Below are positions 1-64,000 of a stretch of DNA of 64,000 bases, one piece after another. This DNA is from a virus: positions 501-64,500 of IMG/VR virus record IMGVR_UViG_3300027545_000001. One strand, 5' to 3'. Position 1 is the first letter of the stretch; each line of letters opens with the position of its first letter. The notes beneath the pieces were generated by a model. It made no database searches. It was not told the origin of the DNA and worked only from the letters and a program-made list of their open reading frames with translations. A program made the translations under genes and the position numbers.

Positions 1-31
1 GCAGTCCTGCATAAACAATCCCCAGTGTGCC

Positions 32-3000
32 ATGGCGATACTGCAACAGCAGATCAATATGAATGGGTGGTGCTCAAGCGCCATCACTTCACTTTGTACT
101 TTGGATGTGGCTCTCTCCATGAACATGGGTGGCAATACTGCGACCAAGATTCTGTCAAACGCTGTTACACTGCCATGCTGCACATCTGGTTCAGCGGCAG
201 TCGTAACTACCCCGGCCACGATCTCAGCGGGAACGACGGGCATTGACCCTTGGATATATGATAGCAGCCCAAAGATCACGTCCTACGATGCGTACAAGCA
301 GGGCGGATGCGCCACAGTTTCAGGAAACATCGTTACACGGGTGGGAACGTGTACGGGGTACAACAATGGAAGCGGCGTTAGTAATATCAGTGACTTCTTT
401 AGCTTCGACTGGCTCCAGAGTGGTCGCATCCGATTGTCTACCGTTTCGGTAGCAGATGCATGTCTGTCTACATCTAGCGGGACCAATGCAGAAGCCGTCA
501 TCACTGGCACTACGGGACAGAACTCTCTGACGCTAGCTACTTCTCCAGGCAACACTTACACCTTCTTCTGCGGACAGGGATACTCGATCATGATCCGCAG
601 ACACACGGCGGACGCGGGGTCCTCGGTCAACATTCAAGGCGTCACTGCGTCATATGTGTCTGGCTTGGATGCTGAGACCCCCAGTCAGGGACTTGAAACC
701 ACTTGCTCGCATACAATATTCAGCGGGGGGTATCTATGCATGACAGACGATGCTGGAGCAAGCGGGTGGTTGACTTGGTACAATCCCTCTAACGGAACCG
801 CCAGTATCATCGGGCAGATGCAGACCAATGCAAAGACATCCGGCTCAGATCAGTGGGCATCCCAGGTTTGCCCATACCTCCCCGACATTTACATGGTGGT
901 TGACGACACAGCATCCATCCCGACATGGTACTGCGTGGTACAGGATACGAACAGTAAATGGGTTGTTCTGGAAACAGACTTTGGGGGAACATACACTACA
1001 AATAACAATTTCTCGGCCAGCGCAAGTATTGGTTCTGGGGCAGCAACGGTCGGAACCTATACCCTAACGTATCCAGCAAACAGCGTAACCATATCAGACC
1101 TCACGCCAGGATCGCTTGGAATGGACATTCTTTCCTTAGCGAACGCCTATCTGGGGACCACTGCCGTTGTTCCCGCTGCTCAGCCGCTCATTGCCTGTGT
1201 TGGCGCACAGGTGCAGCAAGGCAACCTGCTCGTGAGATGCTATGCAGGCGTTGGCGCTCAGGATGGCCAGAACACAATGCAATGGCTGTTCGTTATCTCT
1301 CCGGGAGACCACAATCCAGCCCATGCTGGTACGACTGGGGCGCACATCATAGCGGCGCTCAATACATGGCAGTATGCCAATTCTCGATTTAGCGGAGTTC
1401 ACGGGACGGAGGACTATGGGCAAGCCTCTCCATATCTAGGATACGGAGTGGAGCCTATTGAACCGGGCGATCAGGTGATTGGTGATACAGCCATGTATGT
1501 GACCACTAATTCTGAGGTACCTGGGAACAGCGCAAGCGCAGCCCCTCAAGTAATAGCATGTCCAACTAACTCTTTAGGCGTAACAGCCCCTGATACATGC
1601 GTCCAGCTTCAGATCAATCCAGCTACAGGGTTCAGTGATTGCACCACGGGCGGATGTGAACCATACTACTGGACTAGCAAGGGGCTGCAAGGAACCGCCC
1701 CTGGAGTGCCTGCCGTATCACAAGTGGGAGACTTCGTCTGCATCAGCACCAACCAGACAGGATGCGGGTTCCGCAATGCTACCGCGCAAGTGCTCCAACT
1801 GATTCAAAAAGGGGTGGGAGGCGATCCATCCCAGTGGATATTCCGCCTGCAATACCCCAACAATGGCAATAACCCGCTGCTCAACACCACGCTCAAATAC
1901 ATATTCTTCCTGCCATCGAACTATGCGAGCACACATGCCGGACCAGAATGGCCGGGGCTAAGCTTCGTCGGAGGACTTTATTCCACCTTCACGAACAGCA
2001 CTTTGGGATGCTACACCCTGTGGCCGTATGCCACTGATCCGCTAGGGCAGAATACTATCATAGATCCTCAAGCTGGTTGCGTTGGTCACGGATATACTCG
2101 CACGTGGTCTGTTGTACAGGATAATAACGGTCCCGCTGCGGGCAGTCCGCAAACCTACTGGGCGCGCTACGGCAGCACCTTTGCCGCAGTCCTCGCCGCG
2201 CCAAATGCCCTAGTAACCGAGACCCCAGTATTTGATGGCTTGACCAATGGGCCAAGCGCAATGTCCGGCTGGTACCAATCCCACCCAGGCCCATCTGGAG
2301 AGAATGCTATATCCAGTGAGCAGCAAGCTTTCTTTGATGTGCGCCCACTAGTTGGCGCAGCCACGTCGGCACCCGCAATTGTGTATAGCAATGTGGGCGG
2401 CAATGTGTGGGTAGAAACGTTCTCTGGAGGCGACATCATCGATGCAGATGACTTTGGGAACGTTGGACTCGGGACTAACCTGAACAGGAAGATCTACGCC
2501 ACGAACGCGAGTTCCGGCCCCCATCCATTAGTTGACATCAGCGGGCCAAGCTCCAACATCTGCAATCCAACTTGCGCGACCACGACAGCCCCCATCTACA
2601 CTTATTGCATTCCACGTGTGATCGGAGAATGTAATTCTGGCAGTGCACTGGGCTCTATTTACGTGAACGTTCCAGGGATCGTTATCAAGTTCTGTTTCGG
2701 GGATGTGACTAGCGGATTGTCGCAAGATCCACAGGCCAATGATGTTTGTATCACCAACGCGGTCCCAGTCATGCAGGGCGTAGTACAGGCAAGCACGCAG
2801 CAGAACGATCCGAACGCGGCATATCAGCGCGTGCTAACCCACATGGTAGGCCCTCCCAAGCAGACGCAGGGGCAGGTTGGGCCTCACTTGATGCCAGATA
2901 ATTCATGGGTGTTCTTCCCCGCACCATATCTGGATGGCAATTCACGTTCCAACTATATCGCCAAGCTACCCCCATACCCATCGGTAGACAGCTTCGTCCG

Positions 3001-5626
3001 CAATGCCTTCATCCCTATTGCCGTTAACCTGACGGCTCCAACTGGCCTCAGCGTCACTAACGCAATCATCACCTTTGGCTATTTAGACTACAACGGAAAC
3101 TGCACCACAAGGAACGACCCATGTATAGCGAATGCAGCGACGATCCCGAGCGGGACAGCACCTTTCTTATATGCAAGCGAGTCGCCAACTGGTTTGGCTT
3201 GCACTACATCGTGCACGATCACGATACCAGCGATCAGCGAAAGGATGCTGTACTACACAGCGAGCTTCCGCAACGCATCGAACGTGGTGGTGGCGACGAA
3301 CCCGACAATCATTGAAGCAGTTGAACCAATGGCTCCGATTACGCTCTCGCCATCGACGCTGCCGAATGGCACCGTGGGGATTGCATACTCGCAGGCCATC
3401 ACACCCAGTGGCGGGACTGGCCCATATACCTGTGATGTAACAGTTGGATCTATACCAGCAGGCACAACACAGACTGGCACAGGTAACTGCACCATCTCTG
3501 GAATCCCCACCACTGCTACCAGTTATGGATTCACCATGACGGCTACTGACTCACTTGGTAATAGTGGTGGACTCAGTTACTCTGTAACTATTGCTCCACC
3601 CACGATTATCATTGCCCCTAATGTCATGCCTACAGGCATTCAAGGGACACTATATGCACAGAGTCTAGGTGCTAGCGGCGGAATCTTCCCATACACTTAC
3701 TCACTCACAGTTGGATCTTTACCACCAGGACTGTTCATTAACTTTCCAACCATAGGGGTTATTAGTGGGACGCCAACATCCACCGGGACAACTAACTTTA
3801 CAGTCACAGCCGTAGACTCTCACGGGAACACTGGCACCCAGGCATATTCGATTACTATTACTGCTCCTGCCGTTGCTCTCGGGACAGTTGTAATAGGATC
3901 TACTGCTACAGCGGGTATAACACAGAGTGGAGTAAATCAACCATCCACATGGACTCCACTACATCTCACACAGACTAATAACCTAGCACCCACATTCTCT
4001 CTGTTCCCCAGCATGACTGGAGTATGCAATGTAGCTAAGGCGACATCTCTTAACTGCGGAACTCTGGGGTGCTCAACTACTAGCACTCCAGGTTGTGTCC
4101 CAGCACAAGGCTATCAAGGTGGAGTATACGTCCCTGCTAACTCAACTTATCCCAATGGGGAGGCAATATTCAACCCCTGGCAGCAAGCACAATCTACTCC
4201 TATTGGACAGTGGATCGGCTATACAGGTGGGCCATCTGGCACATTCCACTGCTCTACATCTGCTGCATGTTCAGCTAACTGGGAAATCTTTGATTCCACA
4301 TCCCTAGTAGGCTCAGTTGTCACATGCACTGCTGCCCCATGCCCAACTACTGCAACTGCCGCTGGGTATGTAGGCAATGTGGTATTCCAGCCAGCATCAG
4401 CAGGCGGGCCGTGGTACTACTTCGCCCCAGACATCGCAGACATTGCTAGCCGCTCTGGCCTAGCTGTACTCAGATACAACGGGCAGGGTCTAACAAATCC
4501 GTCTAATTGGCAGGGCTTTCTTCTACCTTGTCAGTCAGCCACTCCCACAGGATGCACTGGATTCACAACCATAAATGCTAACGTCGGAGGAGCCACTACT
4601 AGCCCATCAAGCTCCGGGTATGGCTGGTGTGGTCTAGTTTATGACGGTCGATATGTATACTATGTACCAACACATGGCGGACCCTCCACTAATCGGAATG
4701 TAATCCGGTTTGATACTGGCACTTCTGGGACTAATACCTTTGTTATCACTAACTTCAGTCACGTCAATATCGGTGCATTCAACTCCAGCGCAGGAGGCTA
4801 TCTATCTGGTGGATATGATGGTGGCCAGTATGTTTACTTCTTGCCTACTGACACTGTGATGGCACGTTACAATTCCAATGCTGCCTCATGTGCTGGAGGG
4901 TTCACGAGTTCTAGTTGCTGGTCTTTCTTCAGCTTGGCTAACTTAGGCACAGGCGGTAATCCTCAAGTAACTGGCAATGGGAATCTCGCATCCATTCAGA
5001 ATAACGGGTACTATGTTGGCGCTCAAATGGTATGGGATGCGGCAGATGCTAATGAATACATGTATATGGACCCATTTCAGCTTCGTTCTACTCTAGATAT
5101 GCAGAGCAACGTTATTCGGATCAAAGTAGGCACTTGCTCAGGCGGGACTCCTGGACAACAGACCTGTACCGGAACCTTTACCCCAATTGATGTATTCTCC
5201 TCTGGCTCTACATGGGAGATCTTTGACCTAGCAAACTTAGCCTCTAACCAAGAGTGGGCGATTGCCGGGTTAGCTTCACCCCCCGTATACGGACGTGGCA
5301 GCACTTGGGGTAATAATGCACAAGGTAATCAGTTAGTTATTGGTGGATTCCAGTTAGGCTGGATTAATACATCCAATATAGCAGATCCCAAGATAGGAAT
5401 GGTTGCAGATAACGGAGCCATCTACTCTATTCACGATGTGGCACATACGCTGAGTGATCCAACTGGGTGGACTCTCACACCACGGCCATCTAGTCAAACC
5501 AGTGGCACGACTAATCAGGTTAACGGCTGTATGGGTGGCGCATATGACTATGTAGACCAGACACTTTATGTTGCGTGCCCAGCAGTGTCACCTATAGAGA
5601 GCATGTTCAGACTATCACCTATGTAA
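32..5626 (+). CDS. Very large Thr/Ser/Gly/Cys-rich fibre or surface protein with two He_PIG-like Ig domains (5'-truncated)
   Basis: 1864-aa ORF; the frame is open back to base 2 (QSCINNPQCA-M), so the true start is upstream. Two Ig-like repeats at about 3340-3870 (LPNGTVGIAYSQAITPSGGTGPY; MPTGIQGTLYAQSLGASGGIFPY); C-terminal YDGRYVYYVP-type repeats. Confidence 0.7.
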   Translation: MAILQQQINMNGWCSSAITSLCTLDVALSMNMGGNTATKILSNAVTLPCCTSGSAAVVTTPATISAGTTGIDPWIYDSSPKITSYDAYKQGGCATVSGNIVTRVGTCTGYNNGSGVSNISDFFSFDWLQSGRIRLSTVSVADACLSTSSGTNAEAVITGTTGQNSLTLATSPGNTYTFFCGQGYSIMIRRHTADAGSSVNIQGVTASYVSGLDAETPSQGLETTCSHTIFSGGYLCMTDDAGASGWLTWYNPSNGTASIIGQMQTNAKTSGSDQWASQVCPYLPDIYMVVDDTASIPTWYCVVQDTNSKWVVLETDFGGTYTTNNNFSASASIGSGAATVGTYTLTYPANSVTISDLTPGSLGMDILSLANAYLGTTAVVPAAQPLIACVGAQVQQGNLLVRCYAGVGAQDGQNTMQWLFVISPGDHNPAHAGTTGAHIIAALNTWQYANSRFSGVHGTEDYGQASPYLGYGVEPIEPGDQVIGDTAMYVTTNSEVPGNSASAAPQVIACPTNSLGVTAPDTCVQLQINPATGFSDCTTGGCEPYYWTSKGLQGTAPGVPAVSQVGDFVCISTNQTGCGFRNATAQVLQLIQKGVGGDPSQWIFRLQYPNNGNNPLLNTTLKYIFFLPSNYASTHAGPEWPGLSFVGGLYSTFTNSTLGCYTLWPYATDPLGQNTIIDPQAGCVGHGYTRTWSVVQDNNGPAAGSPQTYWARYGSTFAAVLAAPNALVTETPVFDGLTNGPSAMSGWYQSHPGPSGENAISSEQQAFFDVRPLVGAATSAPAIVYSNVGGNVWVETFSGGDIIDADDFGNVGLGTNLNRKIYATNASSGPHPLVDISGPSSNICNPTCATTTAPIYTYCIPRVIGECNSGSALGSIYVNVPGIVIKFCFGDVTSGLSQDPQANDVCITNAVPVMQGVVQASTQQNDPNAAYQRVLTHMVGPPKQTQGQVGPHLMPDNSWVFFPAPYLDGNSRSNYIAKLPPYPSVDSFVRNAFIPIAVNLTAPTGLSVTNAIITFGYLDYNGNCTTRNDPCIANAATIPSGTAPFLYASESPTGLACTTSCTITIPAISERMLYYTASFRNASNVVVATNPTIIEAVEPMAPITLSPSTLPNGTVGIAYSQAITPSGGTGPYTCDVTVGSIPAGTTQTGTGNCTISGIPTTATSYGFTMTATDSLGNSGGLSYSVTIAPPTIIIAPNVMPTGIQGTLYAQSLGASGGIFPYTYSLTVGSLPPGLFINFPTIGVISGTPTSTGTTNFTVTAVDSHGNTGTQAYSITITAPAVALGTVVIGSTATAGITQSGVNQPSTWTPLHLTQTNNLAPTFSLFPSMTGVCNVAKATSLNCGTLGCSTTSTPGCVPAQGYQGGVYVPANSTYPNGEAIFNPWQQAQSTPIGQWIGYTGGPSGTFHCSTSAACSANWEIFDSTSLVGSVVTCTAAPCPTTATAAGYVGNVVFQPASAGGPWYYFAPDIADIASRSGLAVLRYNGQGLTNPSNWQGFLLPCQSATPTGCTGFTTINANVGGATTSPSSSGYGWCGLVYDGRYVYYVPTHGGPSTNRNVIRFDTGTSGTNTFVITNFSHVNIGAFNSSAGGYLSGGYDGGQYVYFLPTDTVMARYNSNAASCAGGFTSSSCWSFFSLANLGTGGNPQVTGNGNLASIQNNGYYVGAQMVWDAADANEYMYMDPFQLRSTLDMQSNVIRIKVGTCSGGTPGQQTCTGTFTPIDVFSSGSTWEIFDLANLASNQEWAIAGLASPPVYGRGSTWGNNAQGNQLVIGGFQLGWINTSNIADPKIGMVADNGAIYSIHDVAHTLSDPTGWTLTPRPSSQTSGTTNQVNGCMGGAYDYVDQTLYVACPAVSPIESMFRLSPM

Positions 5627-5645
5627 AGTGTAATGATTACACTTT
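5625..5645. repeat. Dispersed palindrome copy 1 (AAAGTGTAAT-G-ATTACACTTT)
   Basis: Perfect 10-bp arms; overlaps the stop of the 1864-aa gene. Confidence 0.95.
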
Positions 5646-6594: not shown

Positions 6595-6605
6595 AGTATA
6601 CTTGA

Positions 6606-6624
6606 AAGTGTAATGATTACACTT
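6606..6624. repeat. Dispersed palindrome copy 2
   Basis: AAGTGTAAT-G-ATTACACTT between divergent genes. Confidence 0.95.
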
Positions 6625-6633
6625 AATAGGCAT

Positions 6634-8415
6634 ATGAAGATAACACTGGCCTTATTAGTCTTTTGCACTTCTCTGTTATCTCAAAATCAGCCCCAACCTT
6701 CCCCACTTGTTTCTAAGAGCGCACTCACAGTCGGAACACTACCATCCCCAGCAGCAGCGGGGTGGGTAGTTAGAATTAAAGATGGCGTATCACTTAGTGA
6801 CTGCTCAACTGGAGGGGGGGGCAACTCTGTATGGTGCTGGTACAACGGGAGTGTATGGCAACCTATGGGGGCTGGTGGATTCTCCCCACCAGTTGGGCAG
6901 CAGACTCAGTACCTTCAGATCCAACCTAATACAGGAAATAACACCACTACCAGATTCACATCATTACCCTATCTAAGTTCATCTGATTACAACTTCCCAG
7001 CACAGACAGGTACGATCTCTTCCATATCTCCAGGCAATAATAACATTACTATGACTCCTGTTCCGCTGGGGGTTAATGGGTCAGATGGTCATCATAAGTT
7101 ATGGGTGTCGGGAGGAACTGGAACAGCAGAGGCTTGTACTATAGTCGGCGGGTCCGGCACATCAGGCCAAACATCAGGAGTCATTACACTTAGCTGCTCT
7201 AACTCACATAGCGGAGCGTTCACAGTAAGTAGCGGGACAGTTGGGATTGAAGAAGCTATTATTCAGGCTTCTAATATGAGCACGCCATATGTAGTCATTC
7301 CAGCAGGTGACTATACTCTGCACACAGGTGTATATATTCAGGCTGGGATGTCTGATGGAAGGCTCACTGGAATTGGTGTCTCTCTCGCAGTAGCATCTGG
7401 GTTCACAGGAGAGATAGTCACTGGTGATGCTAGCTTATTTGGATTCACTCTTGAAGGATTCGAGGTTAACTGTACGAACTGTACTGGGACAGGTAACATT
7501 ATAAATCTTAGCCGACCAGAGAACTCAGTACAGGATAAGGTCTCTAAGATACGTGTAGACTTCGCACCAGTAGGTAGCATTATCTTGAACATGGATGGCG
7601 ACGAAGACAGCACCGTAGAAGACACTGGACTATTCAATGCTGCTGGCTCACTCACTAGCTCATCCGCATCTATCTCGTGGCATGTTCCCGCAGGCAACAT
7701 ACATGTAACTAATGTCACCACCTTTGGCTATCTTCTATTTAGTTATCAGATAGCAACCATCGTGCAGACTACAAGCGGGCCACTTCTGTTAGATGGAGCC
7801 AACCTAACTACAGTGATTGATGGAGGTTACATGTATGGTGGCCTCCAACCTAATAACTCCAGTTACTTCTTCTATAACATTTCTATAACTGGCACAATCA
7901 TGGTGCTAGCCCAGAATCAGGTAGCTTTCGTTGGCACTTATGATGGGACAGTAACTTTCCAAGGACTTGCTTATGCCCAAGCTACTCCAGCTACACTTTT
8001 CGGCAGTACTACATTAGGGTCTGGGGCATTCTTTCTTTATGGCGGCCCACAACTCTATGCGAATGGAGCTACACAAGGAACTCCGAATGGCCCACAGATT
8101 GGAGGGTTCCAGCCAGGAGGCATTACTAGCATAGGCTATAACTTCATATCTACTGAGACCGGCGCTAATAATGCAGTTGTAGGTAGTACTCTACTTGTAA
8201 CTGCTCCTCTTCCTGGTATGTGCGTGACAATGATGTTGTCTCACAGCCTACAGACTGGGGGAGTTAATACAGCAGCAATTAATGGGTCATCTGCAATAGA
8301 GATCCGATCACACTACAATCCTGCTAACCTATTGTCTACTCATGCCTATATCTCTGGAGGCATCATCAATATGTGTCTCTATAGCGGCGGCTATTGGTTA
8401 GACATGAGTCAATAA
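6634..8415 (+). CDS. Tailspike/fibre-like beta-helix protein with signal-peptide-like leader
   Basis: MKITLALLVFCTSLLS-Q leader; IEEAI...YVVIPAGDYTL beta-helix cap motif; ORF-track start 6613 lies inside the palindrome. Confidence 0.65.
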   Translation: MKITLALLVFCTSLLSQNQPQPSPLVSKSALTVGTLPSPAAAGWVVRIKDGVSLSDCSTGGGGNSVWCWYNGSVWQPMGAGGFSPPVGQQTQYLQIQPNTGNNTTTRFTSLPYLSSSDYNFPAQTGTISSISPGNNNITMTPVPLGVNGSDGHHKLWVSGGTGTAEACTIVGGSGTSGQTSGVITLSCSNSHSGAFTVSSGTVGIEEAIIQASNMSTPYVVIPAGDYTLHTGVYIQAGMSDGRLTGIGVSLAVASGFTGEIVTGDASLFGFTLEGFEVNCTNCTGTGNIINLSRPENSVQDKVSKIRVDFAPVGSIILNMDGDEDSTVEDTGLFNAAGSLTSSSASISWHVPAGNIHVTNVTTFGYLLFSYQIATIVQTTSGPLLLDGANLTTVIDGGYMYGGLQPNNSSYFFYNISITGTIMVLAQNQVAFVGTYDGTVTFQGLAYAQATPATLFGSTTLGSGAFFLYGGPQLYANGATQGTPNGPQIGGFQPGGITSIGYNFISTETGANNAVVGSTLLVTAPLPGMCVTMMLSHSLQTGGVNTAAINGSSAIEIRSHYNPANLLSTHAYISGGIINMCLYSGGYWLDMSQ

Positions 8416-8443: not shown

Positions 8444-10618
8444 ATGAGACATTTGAGGCTTTTTCTTATCATTATTATATACACTCAGTGCTCTTGGGGT
8501 CTGGGGTCCATTAGTGGGTGGTGTGAACAGGGTAATTCTCTAGTAACTGCCTCTGGTACAGGCGGTACAGCGGCCCCTTACGGACCATTCTCATTCACAG
8601 GTACTTCCATAACTATTCTGGCCTCAACTCATAAGCAGGGTCCCACCCCATTCGTGGAAGTATATGATTCTATGGGATATAACGTAAGTGGGCAGATAGC
8701 TGTACAAGTATCTAATGTAGGTACTGTTGTTATTGGTGGGGCCTCAACTACTTCAGATACCTACACTTACACTATCTATGGGGCACTTGGGACTCCCACG
8801 GGTGGACCTATATCGAGGTTCTATCAGCAGTCATATCCACAATGCACTATTACTGTGTATCAGACAGGCACTTTGACCCTAGCCCCTTTGTTTTCAACGA
8901 ATACGACATCCCCAACACCCCTATCTAACCCATTTTCTGGTAACTTTAACGGCTATTATCAGGCTTTCGCGGCTGAAGGTCTCTATGATGTGCAAATATC
9001 CCAAGGTGGACTGCCTGCACCCTTCACTTTAGGGTCAGAGTCTAACATTGACCCTAATTTTGAGCCTCCTAACCTCTGGGTGACGAATGGAGCAGTTGTC
9101 AACCGGACTAAGAACGCCAAACTCGCTGATTTCATGGATATTCTGGACTTCGGGGCAGATCCAACAGGAAATACTGATATTTCCACTGCGCTCAATAACG
9201 CTTATGCCTCTTTGACTGCTGCTGGCGGTACTATTTGGTTTCCTCCAGGAATATACAAGTTATCTGTTGGGGTTAACTTCAATACCAATAACAAGCCTGT
9301 TCTACTCCAGGGATCTCCAGGTAATGCAGTAGTCATTAACTACACAGCCACATCTGGCACTGCTATCACATTCGACTATGGCACTGGCCTAACTATGGGC
9401 AAAGGACTTCGAGACATAGCTCTTGTTGGCACCGGCCCGACAGCTACCTCAGTCGGACTCAACATCGGAGGCACCGTCAATGGAGCACAGGGTACAGCTA
9501 TTTATGATTTCAAGATTGACAGCTTTGGAGTGGGAGTCACATTCGGTAGCAACACTTGGATAGTGAAGTTGGGGCATGGACTCATTAGGAATAGTGGCAA
9601 TAATGTAATATTCCCTAGCTCCTGCGTAGGTTGTGGTGAGAATATTCAGTGGGACCACATTACATTCGCTGATGCACCAGCCCCATTCACTAATTCAGTA
9701 TGGTTGCAGGCCGGTGAGCATAAGATGACTGACTGCTCCTTCGATCAGGCTCAACTCTCTATAGGGAATGGGACTACTTCACATGCCTTAGTGTCTGTGG
9801 TGGCAGGGCACTTTGAGAATCCTAACTATGCAGCCAACTCCACTCATTATGACTTCATCACACAGAGTAATAATGGAGGCAATCATCTTTCACTAGTGTC
9901 TCCATTCTTTAATCAGGATGATCTCAATCCGGCACATGGACCCTTTGCAGAGTTCATCACCACTAATGGCGGCGAGTTATTTGCTTTCGGTATTGAGATG
10001 TTCACTCCTATAGGGCCAGTGACTCAACTCATCACAGCCAATAATCAGGCCAATGTAACTGTTTATGGATTCAATGACGAGTCAGGCCAGACCACATCTT
10101 TAGTTGGAGGCAACAGCACCGGTTATCTAGTTCAGTTTCCCGGCACCGATCCAGGCCAGACTAATGGACTTAATAATGTTATCGGACCTGGAGCGGGCAC
10201 CAATAGAGGCGGCTCTATACTTGATGTGACTGGTAATATCCGATCCAGTTACAGTGCCAGTGTCCCATTCAGTGGGCAGTTGATATCCGAGATCCCGACA
10301 GGTAATTCTCCTATCGTGGTGAACTCGACTACGCCAGTCACTAATCTATTCTCGAACTATATTCTCTACACTGGTGTGCCAACTCCTACTCCTGCATCCA
10401 CCACCACTAAGATATTGGCTGCTTCATTCACTCTCTCTGGTGGGACATATAATGTCATTTTCCCTGGGGGCATATTTACCAACTCAAGCAGCTACTTCTG
10501 TAATGCCACCGACACCTCCGCTAAGAATCCCATGGAGATAGAACTCTCCAGTGGCACGGCATTCACTATCAGCGGGACCGGCAGTGATTCTGGGATGTTC
10601 ATCTGCACCGGATTCTAA
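8444..10618 (+). CDS. Tailspike-like protein (Pectate_lyase_3-type beta-helix) with signal-peptide-like leader
   Basis: RBS GAGGA then ATG 8444; MRHLRLFLIIIIYTQCSWG leader; DILDFGADPTGNTDISTALNNA...GGTIWFPPGIYK motif; LSNPFSGNFNGYYQAFAAEGLYDVQI resembles virion-attachment domains. Confidence 0.75.
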   Translation: MRHLRLFLIIIIYTQCSWGLGSISGWCEQGNSLVTASGTGGTAAPYGPFSFTGTSITILASTHKQGPTPFVEVYDSMGYNVSGQIAVQVSNVGTVVIGGASTTSDTYTYTIYGALGTPTGGPISRFYQQSYPQCTITVYQTGTLTLAPLFSTNTTSPTPLSNPFSGNFNGYYQAFAAEGLYDVQISQGGLPAPFTLGSESNIDPNFEPPNLWVTNGAVVNRTKNAKLADFMDILDFGADPTGNTDISTALNNAYASLTAAGGTIWFPPGIYKLSVGVNFNTNNKPVLLQGSPGNAVVINYTATSGTAITFDYGTGLTMGKGLRDIALVGTGPTATSVGLNIGGTVNGAQGTAIYDFKIDSFGVGVTFGSNTWIVKLGHGLIRNSGNNVIFPSSCVGCGENIQWDHITFADAPAPFTNSVWLQAGEHKMTDCSFDQAQLSIGNGTTSHALVSVVAGHFENPNYAANSTHYDFITQSNNGGNHLSLVSPFFNQDDLNPAHGPFAEFITTNGGELFAFGIEMFTPIGPVTQLITANNQANVTVYGFNDESGQTTSLVGGNSTGYLVQFPGTDPGQTNGLNNVIGPGAGTNRGGSILDVTGNIRSSYSASVPFSGQLISEIPTGNSPIVVNSTTPVTNLFSNYILYTGVPTPTPASTTTKILAASFTLSGGTYNVIFPGGIFTNSSSYFCNATDTSAKNPMEIELSSGTAFTISGTGSDSGMFICTGF

Positions 10619-32252: not shown

Positions 32253-32278
32253 GAGGAGTGGGGAGAAGGAGCAATAAA

Positions 32279-32962: not shown

Positions 32963-32974
32963 ATTCTTAAGGGG

Positions 32975-36048: not shown

Positions 36049-36287
36049 TGAAGATACATCCCATGACTGCTCTGAAGTGGGGTACTATTTTGGGTAAGAG
36101 AGCCTTTGTTATTGGCTACAGACTGGTAGAATTAACATCATACTATCTTATCCTTATTACACACCCCCGCACTTACTATAGATATCTATGGCGCAGACCC
36201 AATTGGATGGTATCTGGATCTTTGAGTATTAATAGATCTTTCTATAGCAAGTTAGTACATTTGGAGAAGAGATGGGATCGATATTAA
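36048..36287 (+). CDS. Hypothetical protein
   Basis: TAATG-coupled start MKIHPM. Confidence 0.5.
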   Translation: MKIHPMTALKWGTILGKRAFVIGYRLVELTSYYLILITHPRTYYRYLWRRPNWMVSGSLSINRSFYSKLVHLEKRWDRY

Positions 36288-36964: not shown

Positions 36965-37353
36965 TAGAGATGCTACTTAATCTGATAGAAGATATGAATA
37001 AGTGCCTGCCTGATTCATCATATGAGAAGCCTCTGCTAGAGATTAATGGATGGAAGTTCTTTCTTGATGAGAATGGCTTCTTACCATCCGCCAGTAATAC
37101 AATGCTGGTGGCTAAGATATTGGCATGGAAAGATACTGAAGATAATCATTACGCATCCTGTGTGGGTAACAGTACCCCACTAGGAACTATACAGTACCAG
37201 AAGGGACGTGACTTATCCACTGGATTCACACAGGGGTGTGTGATAGACACAAGATTCTTTAGTAGATACGGGTCCAAGGGTATTCAAGATGAGTGTAGTA
37301 AGACTCTGCAAAGACTAATAGACTTTGTGTCTAGTAGGGAATCTCTTACTTAG
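36961..37353 (+). CDS. Hypothetical protein
   Basis: GAGGAG RBS; last gene of the GT operon. Confidence 0.5.
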   Translation: MIEMLLNLIEDMNKCLPDSSYEKPLLEINGWKFFLDENGFLPSASNTMLVAKILAWKDTEDNHYASCVGNSTPLGTIQYQKGRDLSTGFTQGCVIDTRFFSRYGSKGIQDECSKTLQRLIDFVSSRESLT

Positions 37354-41455: not shown

Positions 41456-41803
41456 TCATGAGGTTAACTGATTGTTGAGGTTGTTCAGTTGGTTAATAAG
41501 GCTGTTCAATAGTGTCTGCAAGTTAGGCTGTGCTGGCGCTGGAGCCTTGAGCAGTGCAGTCTGCACCTGTTCAATAGATGCCTTCACTGAGGTTATCTGA
41601 GATAAGATGGCCGACTGCTTCACTGTGGCTGGAGCACCCAAGCCAGGGGTAGCAGTGATGGTGGGAGTAGTGACAGTGGGGATCTGCGCTTGTTGCACCA
41701 GCACTGCTGTCTGATCTATCTTGTTATACAAGTCCTGTATGATCGTGTTGGTGATCGGGTCCGGGTGCTCTAGCCTAGTGTATGGCAGGAATCCAGAGGC
41801 CAT
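41456..41803 (-). CDS. Hypothetical virion-associated protein
   Basis: TAATG-coupled start MASGF; GGGAGG RBS. Confidence 0.55.
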   Translation of the reverse strand: MASGFLPYTRLEHPDPITNTIIQDLYNKIDQTAVLVQQAQIPTVTTPTITATPGLGAPATVKQSAILSQITSVKASIEQVQTALLKAPAPAQPNLQTLLNSLINQLNNLNNQLTS

Positions 41804-42132
41804 TACTCCCTCCCGATCCAAGCCACCCCGTCTGTATTCACGGTGCAAGCGAAGTACAGGGTAGCGGGATTGATGCTGTTGGCTGGATCAGTGGAGTTAT
41901 AGCTTGCGCCTGCCACCAACTCACCACCTGTTGATGTGGTGACTCCTATCCCACCCACATAGATCTTGCCTGTGTTAGCAGCCAATGCGGATACAGTAAG
42001 CTGCCGCAGTGAATAGCTGGTGGTGGACACCTGAGCATTGCCTGATGTGGGGCAAGTGGCCTGCCCTGACTGGTAGTTGCCAGAGTATCCGACAGCAGCC
42101 CAGACAACGAAAGCTAAGAGTAATCTCTTCAT
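41803..42132 (-). CDS. Small beta-rich protein with signal-peptide-like leader
   Basis: MKRLLLAFVVWAAVGYS leader; ANTGKIYVGG motif. Confidence 0.65.
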   Translation of the reverse strand: MKRLLLAFVVWAAVGYSGNYQSGQATCPTSGNAQVSTTSYSLRQLTVSALAANTGKIYVGGIGVTTSTGGELVAGASYNSTDPANSINPATLYFACTVNTDGVAWIGRE

Positions 42133-45100: not shown

Positions 45101-45563
45101 CAATAGATGGTGCCTTACTCGGTGGCACTACACCTATGGCTCTGAGTGTTCCATCCGGTCTGACTTTGGATTGCTTGTTCCTATCATAGACATACATCCA
45201 TGACTCAGGAGAGTTATTAGGTCTGAACGGGATGAGGGATAGAGGCAGACTGGAGTATCCGCTGTCGATGACATCGAAGGCTGTTTCAATCCCGGCATAG
45301 AGTTCGGCACTTCCACCTCCAATGTATGTATACCCAGAGGGAGCATAGACTTGCGTTGGATCATTGAGTCTCCTTATAGAGTTAGGTGTACTAACTAATT
45401 GCAGTGATGCCACATACCCAGGTCTCCCCTCTATCCATCCCTCTTGAGTCACACGTACATTGAATAGATAAGAGAAGTAGTCAGGCGGCACACGATCTAT
45501 AGGGCAGTTAACATTGATGCCCTTACAGTTCATGCGGAGAGGTAGCTTGAATAGGTCAGGCAC
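42147..45563 (-). CDS. Tail hub/stabilisation protein (P22 gp10-like position)
   Basis: 1138 aa; N-terminal LFNVR...IEGRPG and beta-propeller-like segments; follows the adaptor genes. Confidence 0.6.
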   Translation of the reverse strand: MPDLFKLPLRMNCKGINVNCPIDRVPPDYFSYLFNVRVTQEGWIEGRPGYVASLQLVSTPNSIRRLNDPTQVYAPSGYTYIGGGSAELYAGIETAFDVIDSGYSSLPLSLIPFRPNNSPESWMYVYDRNKQSKVRPDGTLRAIGVVPPSKAPSIEYAPPATVTITDAQTDSGWSATGGSSSPATFDRTNSSGATIGAILYNSGSTGWCCINPSMTLPQTFWMGSRMKVILNGAEHVLVRDVLPAIATTTVAGISYDSGTNGLCSMTLVNNPSGLARNSLLQIGSDVFRVLEVIPAPTGSAYSIRCSTGSTHSVGNTVTGLLSWYVYTVGTHVATETITSGAVSLVHTTAAIGAANFSGGIDAQVASNGASIDPANDYLHISLFLQNPQNVINMQILVSLDSTPNFSFTSPGNSWIWTIPQIQLVELGSSGDSWCEIVIPISSGTQYGGDYTLNFSNITGIAIQMTSSGACSYGFDWWYFFGTYGPTIQPNSPTGLIYYTANRDSSTGAHSVPGPGNRQALFPLREGVIITPVYSTQAGVDSNDIYRLGGAVTSPLYVATTPNSGTYLDSLPDSSILETNQPPDLTALQPWPLLQAPWSGTCSVVGTSIQILTGSLLGPTLEDATAILINGQTFLTYGLPIDLTHIQLTQDAGTFSSVSFLISSPTITGQPLPFAFGALEGPFAPVVFALGDPVNGGLLYYSNYSDADSANDSNTLEVTSPSNNLVSGAVWKGIAFCGSREEIFTIQYSYLATIGAAASNQFQWRKLNAQSGIWSRWACCACPVGVAFLGTDGIYLTTDSQCVNITDEELYPLFPHDGQPATAVTYGNNVILPVDMTALQYLRLSYCDETLRFSYPDIDGNWNTLEYQIYHKRWFLNNYADAINFHYLVENSQSLPNQQEILQLSVGPTNQIMLAGGNTDNGAIINSIVLTPSDDGKDERAQKLYVDSMIMFGGTGTLSVAATYNSAQSYSPVMQIACNGTVQQTQQNISSLSNLALYLNIGSKFSWTGGPAGPRIAAWEPSGFMQPYLSQFFVTQYILFSFPGWKHMRRMYPAIISNNPILMTIMTQDGRTYGPFTIASTGGQFRVLPQMLPQNIKDLAFALQLDGQGFTFAFFPADFTVEVKQWTEESYINLAVFKS
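43971..43989. repeat. Dispersed palindrome copy 17 (intragenic)
   Basis: Perfect AGGTGTAAT-G-ATTACACCT; encodes GVIITP. Confidence 0.95.
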
Positions 45564-58776: not shown

Positions 58777-58795
58777 AAGTGTAATGATTACACTT
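58777..58795. repeat. Dispersed palindrome copy 24
   Basis: AAGTGTAAT-G-ATTACACTT between the divergent packaging and fibre genes. Confidence 0.95.
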
Positions 58796-58803: not shown

Positions 58804-61800
58804 ATGAAGAACATCTTAGTTGGTCTGCTCTTTATCTCTACAGCACTTTGTCAGATAAGCCCCCCAGCAGGTGGAGGCGGCACAGGTGGCTCAGGTGCCA
58901 AGAACCTCAGTACCAGTTGGTCCACGGCTACTACCACAGCATCTATTAATGTATCTTCCTTTAACCTGACCACAGCTTCAGTCAACTCTGTCATACCAGC
59001 ATGTTCCACAGGCACAGGGTACTCAGGCACTCCCCCCACTGGATTCCCCACTGGCCCCTTGACTCCGCTCTCATTCGTAATGACCCCGACATTCAGCGGG
59101 TCAAATCTAACCACAGAGACATTCACATTCAGCAGTATTGCTAATGGAGTCTGCACAGTTAACAGTAATGGTGGGGCAGGGGCAGTCGGACCACAGGGAC
59201 CAGCAGGAGCTAATGGCAGCAATGGAGCACCTAGTTGCGGAGTAGTTGGAGCCTGCACGATTGTTTATGCCACCACTTCAGTGAACACAACTGGCCCTGG
59301 TGCAGGCGCTCTCATGATGCAACAGGGTGGTGCTCAGACTCCCCCAGCTAATGCAGTTGGTATTTCTGCTCCTGTATCTGTTCCGAACTGTGCGCCTTCC
59401 AATGGCCCAATGAATGTTCTTTGGGGAGTACCAGCTACAGGGTTAATCCATACCTCGAATGGTTGTCCATCATTCTGGACTACCAGCCTTGTTGCCACGA
59501 CGGATGCAGCAGCCCTAGTCGGAACAGATACCTCTTTTGTGACGGGGCCAACGGGAACAATCGTAGCTGGAGACGCCGCTATGGGGAGCACCAATGGAGG
59601 CGTTACCGACAGCACCTTCCCGATTCAGAATATCTGCGGTGTCAGCACTATCCCTGTCACGGGAACGGGAGGGAGAATTAATGTCACCTGTATACCCCAA
59701 CTTGCTGGGGATGTCACGAACACACCTGGAGGAACAGGGGAAAACATAACAGTTAATGGGATTAATACCGTTCCTCTCTGTACTACATTCACGCCGACCA
59801 ACGGGCAACCTTTAACATACACAACCGGGGGTACGCCTAACCCATGCTGGGGTCCGGTTTCCTCTGCGGGAGGCGGCAATGTTACAGCTGGCACGCTAAC
59901 ATCTGGGTCAATACCTAAAGCCAACGGAGCCACCTCGATCACCAATTCTGGGCTTACCGAGTTCTCCGGGACCCTTGCCTATGGAGGCACCGTGAACTTT
60001 AGCGGTTCCACCCATACAGCACCAGCCATAGTCGTGGCTACGGCTGGTGCGCTCCCAGCCACCTGCAACGCGGCTATCGGTGAGGTAGCCATTGTCACCG
60101 GGGCTACGGCTGGGCAAAACTGGTACTTCTGCTTGACGACGAACACTTGGACGCAGCAGTTAAACAGCGGTGGGGGTAGCACTGGGTTCACTGCCACAGC
60201 AGGTTCAGGCGGCGTTACAGCCAACCTATTAGCTAGCCGGGACACCAGCAATCCTACAGAATACATACTTCCTACGTCTGGTGGATGCGGTGTCGGAATT
60301 GCAGCCACGACCGCCGCAGCTTCATCCACATTTTTACTTCAGACGGTAGCTGGTTCAGTGTTTACTGGAGTAGCTGATAATGCCATAACAGCAGGGCACA
60401 TTCTAGTCGGCGGAACGACAACACCAGGACGAGTATCAGATAGCGGTGTCTCTGCCATTACATCTATTTCTCCTTCCACTTGTGTAGTTGGAGCAGCTAC
60501 GGCCAGCGCCACCACTGGGAGTACCGTCACTCTTATATGGTATGGGGTGGGTACCTTTGGTGCTCAGGCAAGTAGCGGGGGTACAGGCAACGTGGCAACA
60601 CAGCATACCGTCACATTCTCAGCTACTCCGACATTCACCGGCGCATCGGCTTCAGCGGGTACCGTCGATGATTTCGTAATGAGCACGGCCCTCTCGGCCA
60701 ATATCACATCATCAACACTAGCGACCGTCACGAGCGGGCAAGTCCTAAACTTCACCTTTACGCAAGCTGCTAGTGGTGGGCCTTTTACCGTCGTAATGCC
60801 TACGGGATTTGACGCCTGCACAGTGGCTCCAACCGCAAGCACGCTCACGACATGTAGCTATTGGTACGACGGAACAAATGCACACTTGGTGGCAACAAAT
60901 AGTACTTGTCCGAGTTGTGCAGGTGGCGCGTTCTTTGCGGGGAACACGACGAATCCAACAATACCGGTGAATGACTTCGGAATCATAGGATTCAACACTA
61001 CTTCTGCGACGGCCTATGGATGGCAACCGTCATCAACAGCGCCATCTGGCACCCAGTTCATGACGGCGGGTACTCCATCGGGCGGCTATTCTCCAGTAGG
61101 CTATACGAGCACAATAGGTCTATCCAGCCTTGCTACTCAGGCTACTAATACGGTAGTCATGAATGCTACCGGCGGGACAGCAGCACCCACGGCAGTAGCG
61201 ATGCCCACCTGCACGACTGGCGCGGATCTCTACAATACGAGCACGAACTCATGGTCATGCGTGAGCACAGGTGGTAGCACCGGTATAACAGTCACAGCCA
61301 ATAGCACCGGCGTCACAGCAAATCTGCTTGCCAAGCAAGACGCGAGTAACCCTGGCCAATACCAAACCGTAACGGCATCTGGCGGATGCGGACAGGGTAT
61401 TGCTGCTACAACCGCCACATCAACAACATTTCTATTGCAGACCCTACCAGGGGCAGTCTTGACTGGGGTGGCAGATGGCACAATCACTGCGGGGCATATT
61501 CTAATAGGAGGAGCCACAACACCAGGAAGAGTCGCAGATAGTGGCCAGACTTCTCCCGCCTTATTAGCTTCCACCGTATGCGTGGTAGGGTTAGCCACAG
61601 ACAGTGCTACAGTCGGCAATCCCGTAACCTTAATTTGGTATGGAGCGGGGAGTGCTGGGGGCGCAGCGGCGGCGACCAACCTTAGTAATCTTGCAGGGGT
61701 TTCTATCAACACATCGCTGCTTTCTGCTGCTAGTGTAGATCTGGGGAGCACAGCTAATCCGTGGAGGAATCTATATCTATATGGGTCTGGCACATATGGG

Positions 61801-62355
61801 AGCACATATTTAAAGTTGACTGGCACACCAACCTCTACGCGCACATGGACGTTTCAAGATGCCACAGATACATTGGTTGGTTTGGCAACCACTGACACAC
61901 TGACCAATAAAACACTCACCAGTCCAACGCTCATCACCCCTGTCCTGGGAGCGGCCACGGCAACGTCTCTACTAGCCAGCGGGACTTTGGACGGTCAAGC
62001 ACCCATCACGGTTACGACAGGATCATCCGCTACTCTCGGGGGAACCTACAAGTCCGGCTATACATTCAATGAGAACGCCACAGCAGGCACGGCCATCACA
62101 TATACGCTCCCGACCGCTGCGGCAGGCTTGCAGTACTGCGTGGGCAATGCCAACGGTGGAGCGGCCAATACAGGAACATTGGAGCTTCTTACGTCAGCGT
62201 CTGGGCAATTCATCATCTTCACTGATGGCACGCTGAGCGCCACTGGGGGATTCGTCCAATCAGGAGGAGCGGCGGGAGACTTCGGATGCGTGGTCGGTGT
62301 GGACTCTACGCATTGGTATTTCCGGCCATCGCAAGGGACATGGACAAAGCATTGA
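58804..62355 (+). CDS. Long fibre-like protein with signal-peptide-like leader, short collagen-like stretch and duplicated cement-like domain
   Basis: MKNILVGLLFISTALC-Q leader; GAVGPQGPAGANGSNG; two roughly 130-150 aa repeats; TDTLTNKTLTSP motif. Confidence 0.7.
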   Translation: MKNILVGLLFISTALCQISPPAGGGGTGGSGAKNLSTSWSTATTTASINVSSFNLTTASVNSVIPACSTGTGYSGTPPTGFPTGPLTPLSFVMTPTFSGSNLTTETFTFSSIANGVCTVNSNGGAGAVGPQGPAGANGSNGAPSCGVVGACTIVYATTSVNTTGPGAGALMMQQGGAQTPPANAVGISAPVSVPNCAPSNGPMNVLWGVPATGLIHTSNGCPSFWTTSLVATTDAAALVGTDTSFVTGPTGTIVAGDAAMGSTNGGVTDSTFPIQNICGVSTIPVTGTGGRINVTCIPQLAGDVTNTPGGTGENITVNGINTVPLCTTFTPTNGQPLTYTTGGTPNPCWGPVSSAGGGNVTAGTLTSGSIPKANGATSITNSGLTEFSGTLAYGGTVNFSGSTHTAPAIVVATAGALPATCNAAIGEVAIVTGATAGQNWYFCLTTNTWTQQLNSGGGSTGFTATAGSGGVTANLLASRDTSNPTEYILPTSGGCGVGIAATTAAASSTFLLQTVAGSVFTGVADNAITAGHILVGGTTTPGRVSDSGVSAITSISPSTCVVGAATASATTGSTVTLIWYGVGTFGAQASSGGTGNVATQHTVTFSATPTFTGASASAGTVDDFVMSTALSANITSSTLATVTSGQVLNFTFTQAASGGPFTVVMPTGFDACTVAPTASTLTTCSYWYDGTNAHLVATNSTCPSCAGGAFFAGNTTNPTIPVNDFGIIGFNTTSATAYGWQPSSTAPSGTQFMTAGTPSGGYSPVGYTSTIGLSSLATQATNTVVMNATGGTAAPTAVAMPTCTTGADLYNTSTNSWSCVSTGGSTGITVTANSTGVTANLLAKQDASNPGQYQTVTASGGCGQGIAATTATSTTFLLQTLPGAVLTGVADGTITAGHILIGGATTPGRVADSGQTSPALLASTVCVVGLATDSATVGNPVTLIWYGAGSAGGAAAATNLSNLAGVSINTSLLSAASVDLGSTANPWRNLYLYGSGTYGSTYLKLTGTPTSTRTWTFQDATDTLVGLATTDTLTNKTLTSPTLITPVLGAATATSLLASGTLDGQAPITVTTGSSATLGGTYKSGYTFNENATAGTAITYTLPTAAAGLQYCVGNANGGAANTGTLELLTSASGQFIIFTDGTLSATGGFVQSGGAAGDFGCVVGVDSTHWYFRPSQGTWTKH

Positions 62356-63908
62356 AACTTATCATTTTGCTATTCTCATTCTTCTTGGCATGTGAAGGCC
62401 AAGTCATGCCAGTGATACTGTCGGGCGGGGTAGTCACGAGCGGCGGTGCAACCCCGACCTTTATCCAATCAACGGCAACCCCATCCGATACCCAGACGCA
62501 AAGCCCATTCTCAACAGGAACCGGGAGCATTACTACATGTTTCCCAAACTCCACGCAATCAGGGAATACCATAATCGTAAGACTTACATCATCATCCACT
62601 CTGGCCAACATATCCTCAGTAACAGATGACGGTTCGTCATCTAACACTTATACGCAACAGAAAACGGAAGTGGTAAGCAGCAGAACCCTAGCGATCTATA
62701 CTGCGCCAGTAACCAACGTTTCCAGATGCACCACCGTACTATATACGTCTGGGCCAGTAGCTACGGATAATGAGGTCAAGATCTATGAGTTTAGTAATAT
62801 AGCTACAAGTAGTCCTCTGGATGTGTCATGCAATGGAAGCGTAACCAGCGGAACAGCCCCGGCTTGCTCTTCTTCCATGACTCCCACCGTAGCGGGAGAC
62901 TTAATATTGACCTTCGTTGATATTAAGACTTTCACCTCTACGCCAACCGGGGCGATGACCTTCACAGCGCAAACTGGCACCACCCCCACATATCAACTCC
63001 TACCTGGAGACGCAGACGGCACTTCTTGGTCCGCCGGTGATTATGCTATTGACTCGGCTACTTCTGCCATTACCCCCTCCATAACTATATCTCAGTCCAC
63101 TACGCAGGCCCAAGTCGTGGCCATTGCCTTAAAAGCCGCATCTAGTGGGTCTGGATTCAGTGGCATACACGTCAATAATGTGGCAAAGTTTGCACCTCAG
63201 TTCGCCTACTCAACAGCGATAACGGGTACGGCACAGGTAATTCAATTCCCATGTGTAGGTAATGATCTGTGGGTAATCGTAGGAATAGGAGACAATACTA
63301 CCGTTTCTAGCATAAACACAGATAGCAATAGTAACACTTGGACCGGCCTCACGCGAGTAGACAGCACAGGCGATGGCTTCTCCATTCAGTGGTATCACTC
63401 AGATTCGGCAACTTGCAGTGGCACCGAGAAGTTTACAATCAACTTCGCCGCGGCTCCTTCATTCATGACGGTTGTGGCTGTGGACATCTCGAACGCCACG
63501 GGCTATGATTCTTCAGCAACATGCGCAGCCGGATCTACTCCATGTCCTATAAACGTTTCTAGCGGGGGGGATGCGAACAGCACTACTACTATTTCTGGGG
63601 CAAAGATTACCCCGAGTACGGCGGCCGGAGTGGTTCTTAGCTATCAGAATCAGGATTTCGACAGTATGTGTGCAGTTTCTCCTGGAAACTTTGTTGCAGA
63701 TTTAGAGGGCGGTCCTAGCGGGGGAGCGTGTGCGTCTGGATCAGCCTCCATATATAATTATGAAGGTTCAGGATTCGAGCAAGACATGGGGCTTCTTGTG
63801 AAATATTATTCCAGCACTGCTCAAATTTCTATAACATGGTCCATTGCCAATACTCAATCCAGAGCGATTGGCCCTGAATTTAGCTCTACCGTGGCGGTGA
63901 AGCAGTGA
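62352..63908 (+). CDS. Ser/Thr-rich beta protein with signal-peptide-like leader
   Basis: Likely TTG start at 62352 (TTGA overlap): MKLIILLFSFFLACEG-Q; tandem GN.I.V-type beta domains. Confidence 0.65.
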   Translation: MKLIILLFSFFLACEGQVMPVILSGGVVTSGGATPTFIQSTATPSDTQTQSPFSTGTGSITTCFPNSTQSGNTIIVRLTSSSTLANISSVTDDGSSSNTYTQQKTEVVSSRTLAIYTAPVTNVSRCTTVLYTSGPVATDNEVKIYEFSNIATSSPLDVSCNGSVTSGTAPACSSSMTPTVAGDLILTFVDIKTFTSTPTGAMTFTAQTGTTPTYQLLPGDADGTSWSAGDYAIDSATSAITPSITISQSTTQAQVVAIALKAASSGSGFSGIHVNNVAKFAPQFAYSTAITGTAQVIQFPCVGNDLWVIVGIGDNTTVSSINTDSNSNTWTGLTRVDSTGDGFSIQWYHSDSATCSGTEKFTINFAAAPSFMTVVAVDISNATGYDSSATCAAGSTPCPINVSSGGDANSTTTISGAKITPSTAAGVVLSYQNQDFDSMCAVSPGNFVADLEGGPSGGACASGSASIYNYEGSGFEQDMGLLVKYYSSTAQISITWSIANTQSRAIGPEFSSTVAVKQ

Positions 63909-64000
63909 GACTATTATTAGCATTTTTATCATTAGTATCACTAGCTCATTCCGCTACATATACGGCGGCCACCTGCGGAAGTGCGGATGTACAGTCTGCC
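63905..64000 (+). CDS. Signal-peptide-bearing protein, 3'-truncated
   Basis: GTGA overlap; MRLLLAFLSLVSLAHS-ATYTAATCGSADVQSA, open to the window end. Confidence 0.6.
   Translation, partial: MRLLLAFLSLVSLAHSATYTAATCGSADVQSA

Follow-up and report, generated by a model that had tools for sequence, protein, structure and literature searches.

The stretch of DNA analyzed here (the window) comprised 64,000 nucleotides (nt), bases 501-64500 of the 66,875-bp virus record IMGVR_UViG_3300027545_000001, and the origin of the record was soil. The two ends of the record overlapped by 134 nt, 129 of which were identical (the 5 mismatches were all in the first bases); thus, the genome is circular (about 66.7 kb) or permuted. 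From position 58804, a plus-strand operon diverged from the terminase operon and encoded, in order, g1 (1183 amino acids, aa), g2 (518-522 aa), g3 (544 aa), a 95-aa FN3-like protein, and g4 (2132 aa). The first four genes were joined by overlapping stop and start codons and were followed by a 145-nt gap before g4. Downstream of g4 were a small open reading frame (ORF) and one minus-strand gene, and then g5 (6634-8415) and g6 (8444-10618). All seven proteins of this block, which ranged from 95 to 2132 aa, began with a putative secretion leader, including those whose sequence lay beyond the right end of the window (the remainder of g3, the FN3-like gene, and the start of g4). Together they summed to about 5,800 aa, or about one-quarter of the genome. 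The features of the block were as follows.

58804..62355, plus strand: g1, a mosaic fibre-like protein of 1183 aa with 25 Cys and 4% charged residues
58804-58851, plus strand: g1 leader, Sec-type, 16 aa from ATG 58804, MKNILVGLLFISTALC and then Q, predicted cleavage between ALC and Q
59986..60180, plus strand: g1 mini-domain, aa 395-459, with the pattern Cys ... Y-F-C ... N-x-W, also present in viral contigs
60166..61641, plus strand: g1 span with two 127-aa internal repeats (aa 455-581 and 821-946), which are 65% identical
61918..62352, plus strand: g1 C-terminal domain, aa 1039-1183, with two invariant Cys and ending in GTWTKH
62340..63908, plus strand: g2, a two-lobed beta protein of 522 aa from ATG 62340 or 518 aa from TTG 62352
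63905..64000, plus strand, on to L001:2039: start of g3 (544 aa), GTG 63905, leader MRLLLAFLSLVSLAHS and then A, predicted cleavage between LAHS and A
between g3 and g4, plus strand: 95-aa FN3-like gene, ATGA overlap with g3, leader MRAIIAFLLLATYLWA
1..5626, plus strand: g4, last 1874 of 2132 aa; start and leader at L001:2469 (L001:2469-2875), across the circular junction
6634..8415, plus strand: g5, 593 aa, leader MKITLALLVFCTSLLS and then Q
8444..10618, plus strand: g6, 724 aa, pectate-lyase-type and tailspike-like, leader MRHLRLFLIIIIYTQCSWG; matches to PF12708 (E = 1.9e-10) and phrog_28781 (tail spike)

The g3 start codon overlapped the g2 stop codon (GTGA), and g4, whose leader was MKTFILQSVIITLFCSLAHS followed by Q, was split by the linearisation point. 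In the case of g2, the leader (KLIILLFSFFLACEG and then Q, with FLACEG directly before the predicted site) stood with either start codon. ATG 62340 (MDKALKLII...) was likelier to be the start than TTG 62352, given that MDQALRLL and MDTSLRLL open the homologues P0164 and P0166.

Leaders were called with a simple heuristic applied to the n-, h- and c-regions and the -3/-1 residues. Specifically, the pattern was a basic n-region, an uncharged hydrophobic h-region of 7 to 15 residues, and small residues at -3 and -1, and a score of at least 4 was a pass. The scores of g1 to g6 and the FN3-like protein were 4.2 to 5.1. Nine real genes passed: the block proteins, a PEP-CTERM protein, and a 109-aa ORF (the 95-aa FN3-like protein, which was scored separately, passed). 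One antisense ORF likewise passed. None of the approximately 45 other genes of at least 100 aa, which included replication, packaging, head, adaptor, nozzle, and internal protein genes, reached a score of 4, and the probability of finding all seven block genes among nine positives of about 55 was about 2e-7. The leader proteins also stood out in composition, with 4 to 10% charged residues versus 20 to 30% elsewhere in the genome. Every block protein started with a basic, then hydrophobic, then small-residue segment, and some of these leaders were short (14 to 16 aa). A first-pass annotation of this DNA, made from the sequence alone, had placed such leaders on three consecutive genes, and we found them where it had put them, in g1, g2, and g3. 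The ideas that the window leaders were of the lipoprotein or twin-arginine (Tat) type were rejected, as there was no lipobox and no twin arginine.

A survey of relatives indicated that the leaders were kept. The g3 and g4-core families carried them, as did most relatives of the g1 modules; 28 of the 34 proteins with g1 modules had leaders, mostly with Gln at +1, and the relatives that had the C-terminal domain of g1 were also leader-bearing. The leaders varied freely in sequence, and the conserved cores of the g2, g3, and g4 families began at the predicted cleavage site. The comparison therefore supported the earlier claim of export: leaders were retained without sequence conservation, the cores were conserved from the cleavage site, and the same runs of leader genes occurred in other soil phages. 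It is highly probable, judging from these sequence comparisons, that the block proteins are exported as predicted substrates of the Sec pathway and signal peptidase I. The Cys/disulfide argument did not hold up. The fibre-module proteins had been described as rich in Cys, which was only moderately true (2.0% in the leader set versus 1.4% elsewhere). Moreover, leader-bearing and leaderless g2 relatives had medians of 8 versus 5.5 Cys (p = 0.12), and because this difference within the g2 family was not significant, we dropped Cys enrichment as a sign of periplasmic disulfides.

The g2 family provided the clearest view of a cleavage site. An exhaustive HMMER search yielded 165 representatives of this mostly viral family, whose conserved mature N-terminus is TPTLVQ. 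In about 24 full-length relatives, the leader ended in A(Q/A) directly before TPTLVQ, and about 18 relatives were leaderless and started M-x-TPTLVQ (for example, M-A-TPTLVQ). Because the leaderless members started at TPTLVQ, the cleavage site was pinned, and the leader appeared to be an add-on that this family carries or drops. One leaderless relative was located on a 44-kb podophage contig with an SU10-type portal. On one podophage contig (L095:7796-11395, L096), a leader-bearing 734-aa protein with 16 Cys was followed by a leaderless g2 relative with 3 Cys; since these two genes adjoin, adjacent genes of such modules can differ in compartment. The g2 protein looked viral by language-model features, and, like g1, it is made up of phage fibre modules. 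It had no match in the cultured-phage collection, and a Pfam scan of each member of the family alignment yielded nothing useful. Similarly, Pfam and PHROGs gave nothing for g1, g2, g3, and g5, and sequence and profile searches of the PDB gave nothing for g2, g3, g5, and g6.

The g3 and g4 proteins pointed to the exopolysaccharide of the host. The structure model of g3 (mean predicted local distance difference test score, pLDDT, of 90) was a right-handed beta-helix, and its fold matches were phage tailspikes and depolymerases, GH110, PL6 lyases, GH28, and the Vibrio matrix lyase RbmB. Based on this model, g3 is predicted to be a beta-helix glycanase or lyase. We found at least 400 relatives of g3 at 50 to 71% identity, and nearly all of them had a differing leader of the same design, with an AXA-type site that was followed at once by the conserved mature start. 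Cellular relatives (55 to 65% identity) were located inside Wzx/Wzy polysaccharide clusters with glycosyltransferases, in one case with an exosortase. In species genomes, 47 of the 58 loci with a g3 relative had such polysaccharide genes within 6 kb, and the best-matching organisms were Acidobacteriaceae and other Terriglobia. The alignment between g3 and the cellular exoproteins extended from the first mature residue to the end. Because it covered the entire mature protein, g3 has gained no particle-binding domain. It looks as if g3 was captured from a host exopolysaccharide cluster with its leader included.

Similar results were observed with g4. Its first 1365 aa belonged to a leader-bearing family of about 1280 aa with varying leaders and a core conserved from the cleavage site, and these residues were followed by He_PIG Ig domains and a C-terminal extension. 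Relatives of the g4 core were found in exopolysaccharide clusters beside two leader proteins, one of about 660 aa and one of about 850 aa that weakly matched pectate lyase, and both carried the approximately 60-aa mini-domain of g1 (aa 395-459) directly past the leader. Two acidobacterial clusters (L119:5432-13831 and L120:5479-13975) contained a conserved trio of leader-bearing giants of about 660, 850, and 1280 aa plus a second 1280-aa copy; these giants appear to be undescribed. The closest g4 relative with the same C-terminal extension was on a phage-like contig, where its neighbours were a GH43 protein and a cell-wall hydrolase. Both g3 and the first 1365 aa of g4 correspond, over the full length, to proteins that hosts secrete and encode in their Wzx/Wzy clusters.

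In contrast to g3 and the g4 core, g1 and g6 are composed of phage receptor-binding parts. The fibre hallmarks that the first-pass annotation had seen in g1 were there, namely collagen-like triplets (seven, at aa 123-143) and a TLTNKTL motif (at aa 1032). The last 145 aa of g1 were 65 to 81% identical to parts of 17 otherwise unrelated proteins, nearly all of them leader-bearing, and this domain was not found in the three related virus records that were searched. Its model was all-beta (pLDDT of 80 to 95) and matched T4 gp10, gp9, and CBA120 TSP4 XD domains, a Klebsiella phage baseplate protein, a capsid spike, and a tailspike C-terminus. These superpositions had Z scores of 8 to 11.5 and rmsd values from 2.4 to 2.8 Å over 95 to 101 residues, with unrelated folds starting from Z 2.9; as modeled, the g1 C-terminal domain has the T4 gp10/CBA120 TSP4 XD-type fold. 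Modules of the g1 fibre shaft also occurred in leaderless proteins with ordinary fibre N-termini (P0143 and P0145). The g1-type mini-domain, as noted above, directly followed the leader in secreted proteins of cellular exopolysaccharide clusters. The g6 protein was 45% identical to a leader-bearing 705-aa protein encoded inside the structural operon of a related phage (G001), and these two proteins shared an N-terminal module; no module of this kind was common to g1 through g6. Thus, the description of the block as a virion fibre module stood in part: it suits the phage-type fold of the g1 C-terminus and does not suit g3 and the g4 core, which are host-type exoproteins, g3 being without a particle-binding domain.

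The host is probably a member of the Acidobacteriaceae, for which the indirect evidence comes from the homologues of g3 and g4, from the PEP-CTERM protein, and from the relatedness to the Tunturi phages described below. This assignment bears on the Gln that had been noticed at +1. With cleavage sites placed by a crude rule, Gln at +1 recurred in g1, g2, g4, g5, and most homologues. Of 41 signal-like N-termini in twenty 20-kb samples (400 kb) of one Acidobacteriaceae genome (G004), at least 18 had Gln after an A-x-A-type site, and a glutaminyl cyclase gene (Glu_cyclase_2, PF05096) was present in three of five Acidobacteriaceae genomes. Pyroglutamate capping of the block proteins, which the first-pass annotation had suggested, is therefore plausible, and the phage leaders look adapted to the host. 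The pattern in the sampled genome resembled the Q-rule of Bacteroidetes, a rule that has been described as specific to that group (PMC5837995).

Four viral contigs belonged to the same lineage as the window phage, with portals that were 67 to 70% identical. Every contig of this lineage that reached the region carried large leader genes beside a 242-aa gene and the terminase, and most of these leader genes were not homologues of g1 through g6. In L008, the leader genes were on the strand of the late operon and had a 4-nt overlap with the terminase (late) operon. In G001, a complete genome of 64.9 kb, the leader-bearing tailspike lay within the structural operon, and its neighbour was a 303-aa protein with a Tat-like motif. 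Leader-gene runs were also found outside the lineage: a siphovirus-like locus (L014) had at least 10 consecutive leader genes after its tail genes, a myovirus-like locus (L012) had one large and one smaller leader gene after its baseplate genes, and a shorter run was present at locus L013 of a 295-kb bacterial contig. Twin-arginine, Tat-like motifs (TRRKFIKRG... and SRRAFCRLGAAAAFG...) took the place of Sec leaders within such runs in two proteins, the 303-aa G001 protein (L009:2367-3278, minus strand) and a 261-aa L014 protein (L014:19890-20675).

The only cultured phages with a matching portal were the Tunturiibacter phages Tunturi 1 (PP887698) and Tunturi 2, which are lytic podophages of Acidobacteriaceae (PMC11924767). 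The plaques of Tunturi 1 are clear, and the paper that describes this phage makes no mention of signal peptides or virion proteomics (PMC11924767). Tunturi 1 shared the nozzle, adaptor, capsid, portal, and terminase with the window phage at 22 to 28% identity. It also had a run of leader genes with Gln at +1, comprising gp12, gp13, the annotated tail spike gp14, gp16, and the annotated virion structural protein gp17. This run was located directly before the lysis genes; the adaptor and nozzle were leaderless, and the leader proteins were not homologous to g1 through g6. The tail proteins of Tunturi 4, a siphovirus of the same host genus, were leaderless, and the idea that the host forces leaders on all its phages was rejected on this basis. 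A search for prophage relatives by means of the portal found none in 401 genomes of the order or in a species-genome scan.

The genes and elements that surround the block indicated how it is placed in the genome. The features that are relevant here were as follows.

58481 down to 37346, minus strand: structural operon, with the terminase in two ORFs, the portal, and the major capsid protein (weak PHROG matches)
58780..58792, no strand: copy of the palindrome TGTAATSATTAC, 11 nt upstream of g1, in the gap that separates it from the divergent terminase operon
41803..42132, minus strand: 109-aa ORF with leader MKRLLLAFVVWAAVG..., directly after the nozzle-like gene in the structural operon

The palindrome TGTAATSATTAC occurred at 24 sites in the genome versus 0.01 expected. 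In addition to the copy between the two divergent operons, copies were found at 5629 (directly past the g4 stop), at 6609 and 8419 (at g5 and g6), and between structural genes, so that the palindrome flanked the leader block and punctuated the structural operon alike. Several genes began inside the palindrome as ATGATTACA (M-I-T). The structural operon also encoded an SU10-type adaptor (PF24175), a 1138-aa nozzle-like protein, and several Cys-free proteins that resembled internal or ejection proteins. The 242-aa gene (5905-6633, minus strand) was 46% identical to a gene located directly before the terminase in G001, L006, and L008; here, the 13.6-kb g1-g4 block, in the opposite orientation, separated it from the terminase. 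Because the block splits two genes that are adjacent in relatives, it looks like an inserted cassette.

The nozzle-like protein (42147-45563, minus strand) corresponded to two G001 genes, one of 881 aa and, three genes on, one of 335 aa. Because these genes are separate in G001, the last 280 aa of the nozzle-like protein may be a fused tip; this segment was the only leaderless receptor-binder candidate. The 109-aa leader ORF occupied the position of the leader-bearing tailspike of G001. At 32258-37353, the PEP-CTERM protein (Pfam, E = 6e-7) headed a glycosyltransferase operon, four genes of which were kept in G001 at 52 to 57% identity, with no PEP-CTERM gene at that place in G001. The region was found in no RNA run, and the only run that contained most of its words was a soil metagenome, from which this DNA may have come.

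Several known systems resemble parts of the block. In Pantoea stewartii, the exopolysaccharide cluster encodes WceF, an exported beta-helix glycanase (PMC7949094), and Vibrio RbmB is a similar case (PslG is placed in the same functional class); the cellular g3 relatives are similar in that they are leader-bearing beta-helix proteins encoded among Wzx, Wzy, and glycosyltransferase genes. However, WceF has a Tat signal and a tailspike-like head domain, whereas g3 has a Sec-type leader, no head, and no sequence similarity to WceF, and is borne by a phage. The MAT fibres of Bdellovibrio (PMC10769870) are phage-fibre-like mosaics that have signal peptides and act outside the cytoplasm. They differ in being chromosomal genes of a predator, in having a beta-rich domain, conserved and about 130 aa long, past the signal peptide, and in that many end in S74; the mature N-termini of g1 through g6 differed from one another, and no Peptidase_S74 match was found. 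Proteins of Porphyromonas gingivalis phages also have Sec leaders that expose Gln at +1 according to the Q-rule (PMC10367356, PMC5837995), but these are a few proteins of unassigned role that are read as envelope modifiers in Bacteroidetes, in contrast to the arrays of very large fibre and tailspike types seen here. Virion tailspike depolymerases (P22 gp9, CBA120 TSP1-4, and those of Klebsiella phage) are similar in the beta-helix bodies of g3 and g6, the XD/gp10-type C-terminus of g1, and mosaic exchange; the known ones have an N-terminal particle-binding domain and no signal peptide, whereas all of the block proteins are leader-bearing and g3 is without such a domain. Phage-encoded envelope proteins such as lambda Lom and Bor and T5 Llp are often encoded beside tail-fibre genes. 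These are single small outer-membrane proteins or lipoproteins, as opposed to a quarter of a genome in fibre-sized proteins.

We lean toward the idea that the block is a late exported arsenal that is aimed at the host exopolysaccharide and works outside the cytoplasm. Phage operons within the palindrome-marked regulon would encode substrates of Sec and signal peptidase I. During infection of Acidobacteriaceae, these would be exported and cut at the -3/-1 site, often with Gln as the new N-terminal residue, which a glutaminyl cyclase of the host could cap. The exported proteins would then act on the exopolysaccharide and envelope of the host, and their likeliest job would be to cut, bind, or remodel the slime layer from within. 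Progeny might be freed in this way, and progeny or superinfecting phages might be kept from sticking to the dying cell. We infer actual export, a polysaccharide target, late timing, and non-attachment to the virion. The points in favor of the arsenal are that g3 and the g4 core are of host type without a docking domain, that the leader is optional in the g2 family, that the phage invests in exopolysaccharide elsewhere (the PEP-CTERM protein and glycosyltransferases), and that leaders are not imposed by the host, as Tunturi 4 indicates.

Other observations weigh against this idea and favor a second one, in which at least g1, g5, and g6, together with their Tunturi 1 counterparts, are virion fibres or tailspikes that are exported, cleaved, folded, and oligomerised in the periplasm and then dock onto finished, fibreless particles after the holin opens the inner membrane, either in the outer-membrane sac or in the lysate. 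Attachment of tailspikes and fibres is normally the final step and can be done in vitro (P22 and T4), and holins of the lambda type make holes larger than a capsid. Since tailed phages need receptor binders, some block proteins may be virion parts: in neither this genome nor Tunturi 1 did we recognise a large receptor-binding protein without a leader, and every large outer-type protein was leader-bearing, with the adaptor, nozzle, and internal proteins leaderless. Folds and matches of the tailspike and gp10/XD type, including the occurrence of the g1 C-terminal fold in virion tailspikes, baseplate proteins, and a capsid spike, agree with a place on the particle, as do the mosaic, fast-swapping pattern that is typical of host-range proteins, the fibre positions of the leader genes after the baseplate or tail genes in L012 and L014, and the leader-bearing g6 relative in the structural operon of G001. 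For accessory enzymes, a quarter of the genome is also a lot. However, the literature that we searched contained no paper on signal peptides of tailed-phage tail fibres or tailspikes and thus no precedent in any tailed phage; g3 and the g4 core are built exactly like the cellular exoproteins and have no docking domain; the g1 shaft modules also occur in leaderless proteins whose N-termini are those of ordinary fibres; the g2 family works with or without a leader; and Tunturi 4 has leaderless tail proteins in the same host genus. We regard virion attachment of these proteins as a tentative alternative, and it is similarly doubtful, though conceivable, that receptor binders here and in Tunturi 1 are made as Sec preproteins, cleaved and capped with pyroglutamate in the periplasm, and attached after the holin breach. 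A mixed outcome is quite possible, in which the particle carries g1, g5, and g6, and g3, g4, and the FN3-like protein are free.

Two further explanations appear less probable than either of these. Host conversion or surface display, in which the proteins are adhesins or matrix proteins on a carrier cell (possibly with an episome maintained by ParB), in the manner of the Bdellovibrio MAT fibres, and act with the PEP-CTERM/glycosyltransferase operon, would account for that operon, for the surface-protein layout in which a signal peptide is combined with a terminal domain that is conserved, and for the g1 mini-domain that directly follows the leader in cellular exopolysaccharide-cluster proteins. 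We consider it improbable, because the palindrome regulon takes in both the block and the structural genes, the leader genes of L008 are translationally coupled to the terminase operon, the same run immediately precedes the lysis genes of lytic Tunturi 1, and no prophage relatives were found in the genomes scanned; the clear plaques of Tunturi 1 (PMC11924767) also argue against lysogenic conversion. It is very improbable that the hydrophobic N-termini are uncleaved segments for assembly or membrane tethering and that the proteins are cytoplasmic. The shortness of some leaders would fit such segments, but the canonical n/h/c layout and small -3/-1 residues recur across hundreds of relatives whose leader sequences are not conserved, conservation of the core sets in at the predicted site, paralogues that lack a leader start exactly there, and the cellular orthologues are ordinary secreted proteins.

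The assembly of tailed phages is taught as cytoplasmic, and phage depolymerases are taught as virion parts or as enzymes released by lysis. The phage described here gives about one-quarter of its genome to fibre-sized proteins with signals for the secretion pathway of the host, and part of this set copies exoproteins from host exopolysaccharide clusters. If the leader-bearing receptor binders do join the virion, a two-compartment assembly route would be new for tailed phages. If the exported arsenal is the correct reading, soil phages would capture slime-processing enzymes from their hosts, leaders included, and turn them against the matrix of Acidobacteria, a dominant and little-studied phylum in soil. 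Cultured, lytic Tunturi 1 has the same feature, which makes either reading testable.

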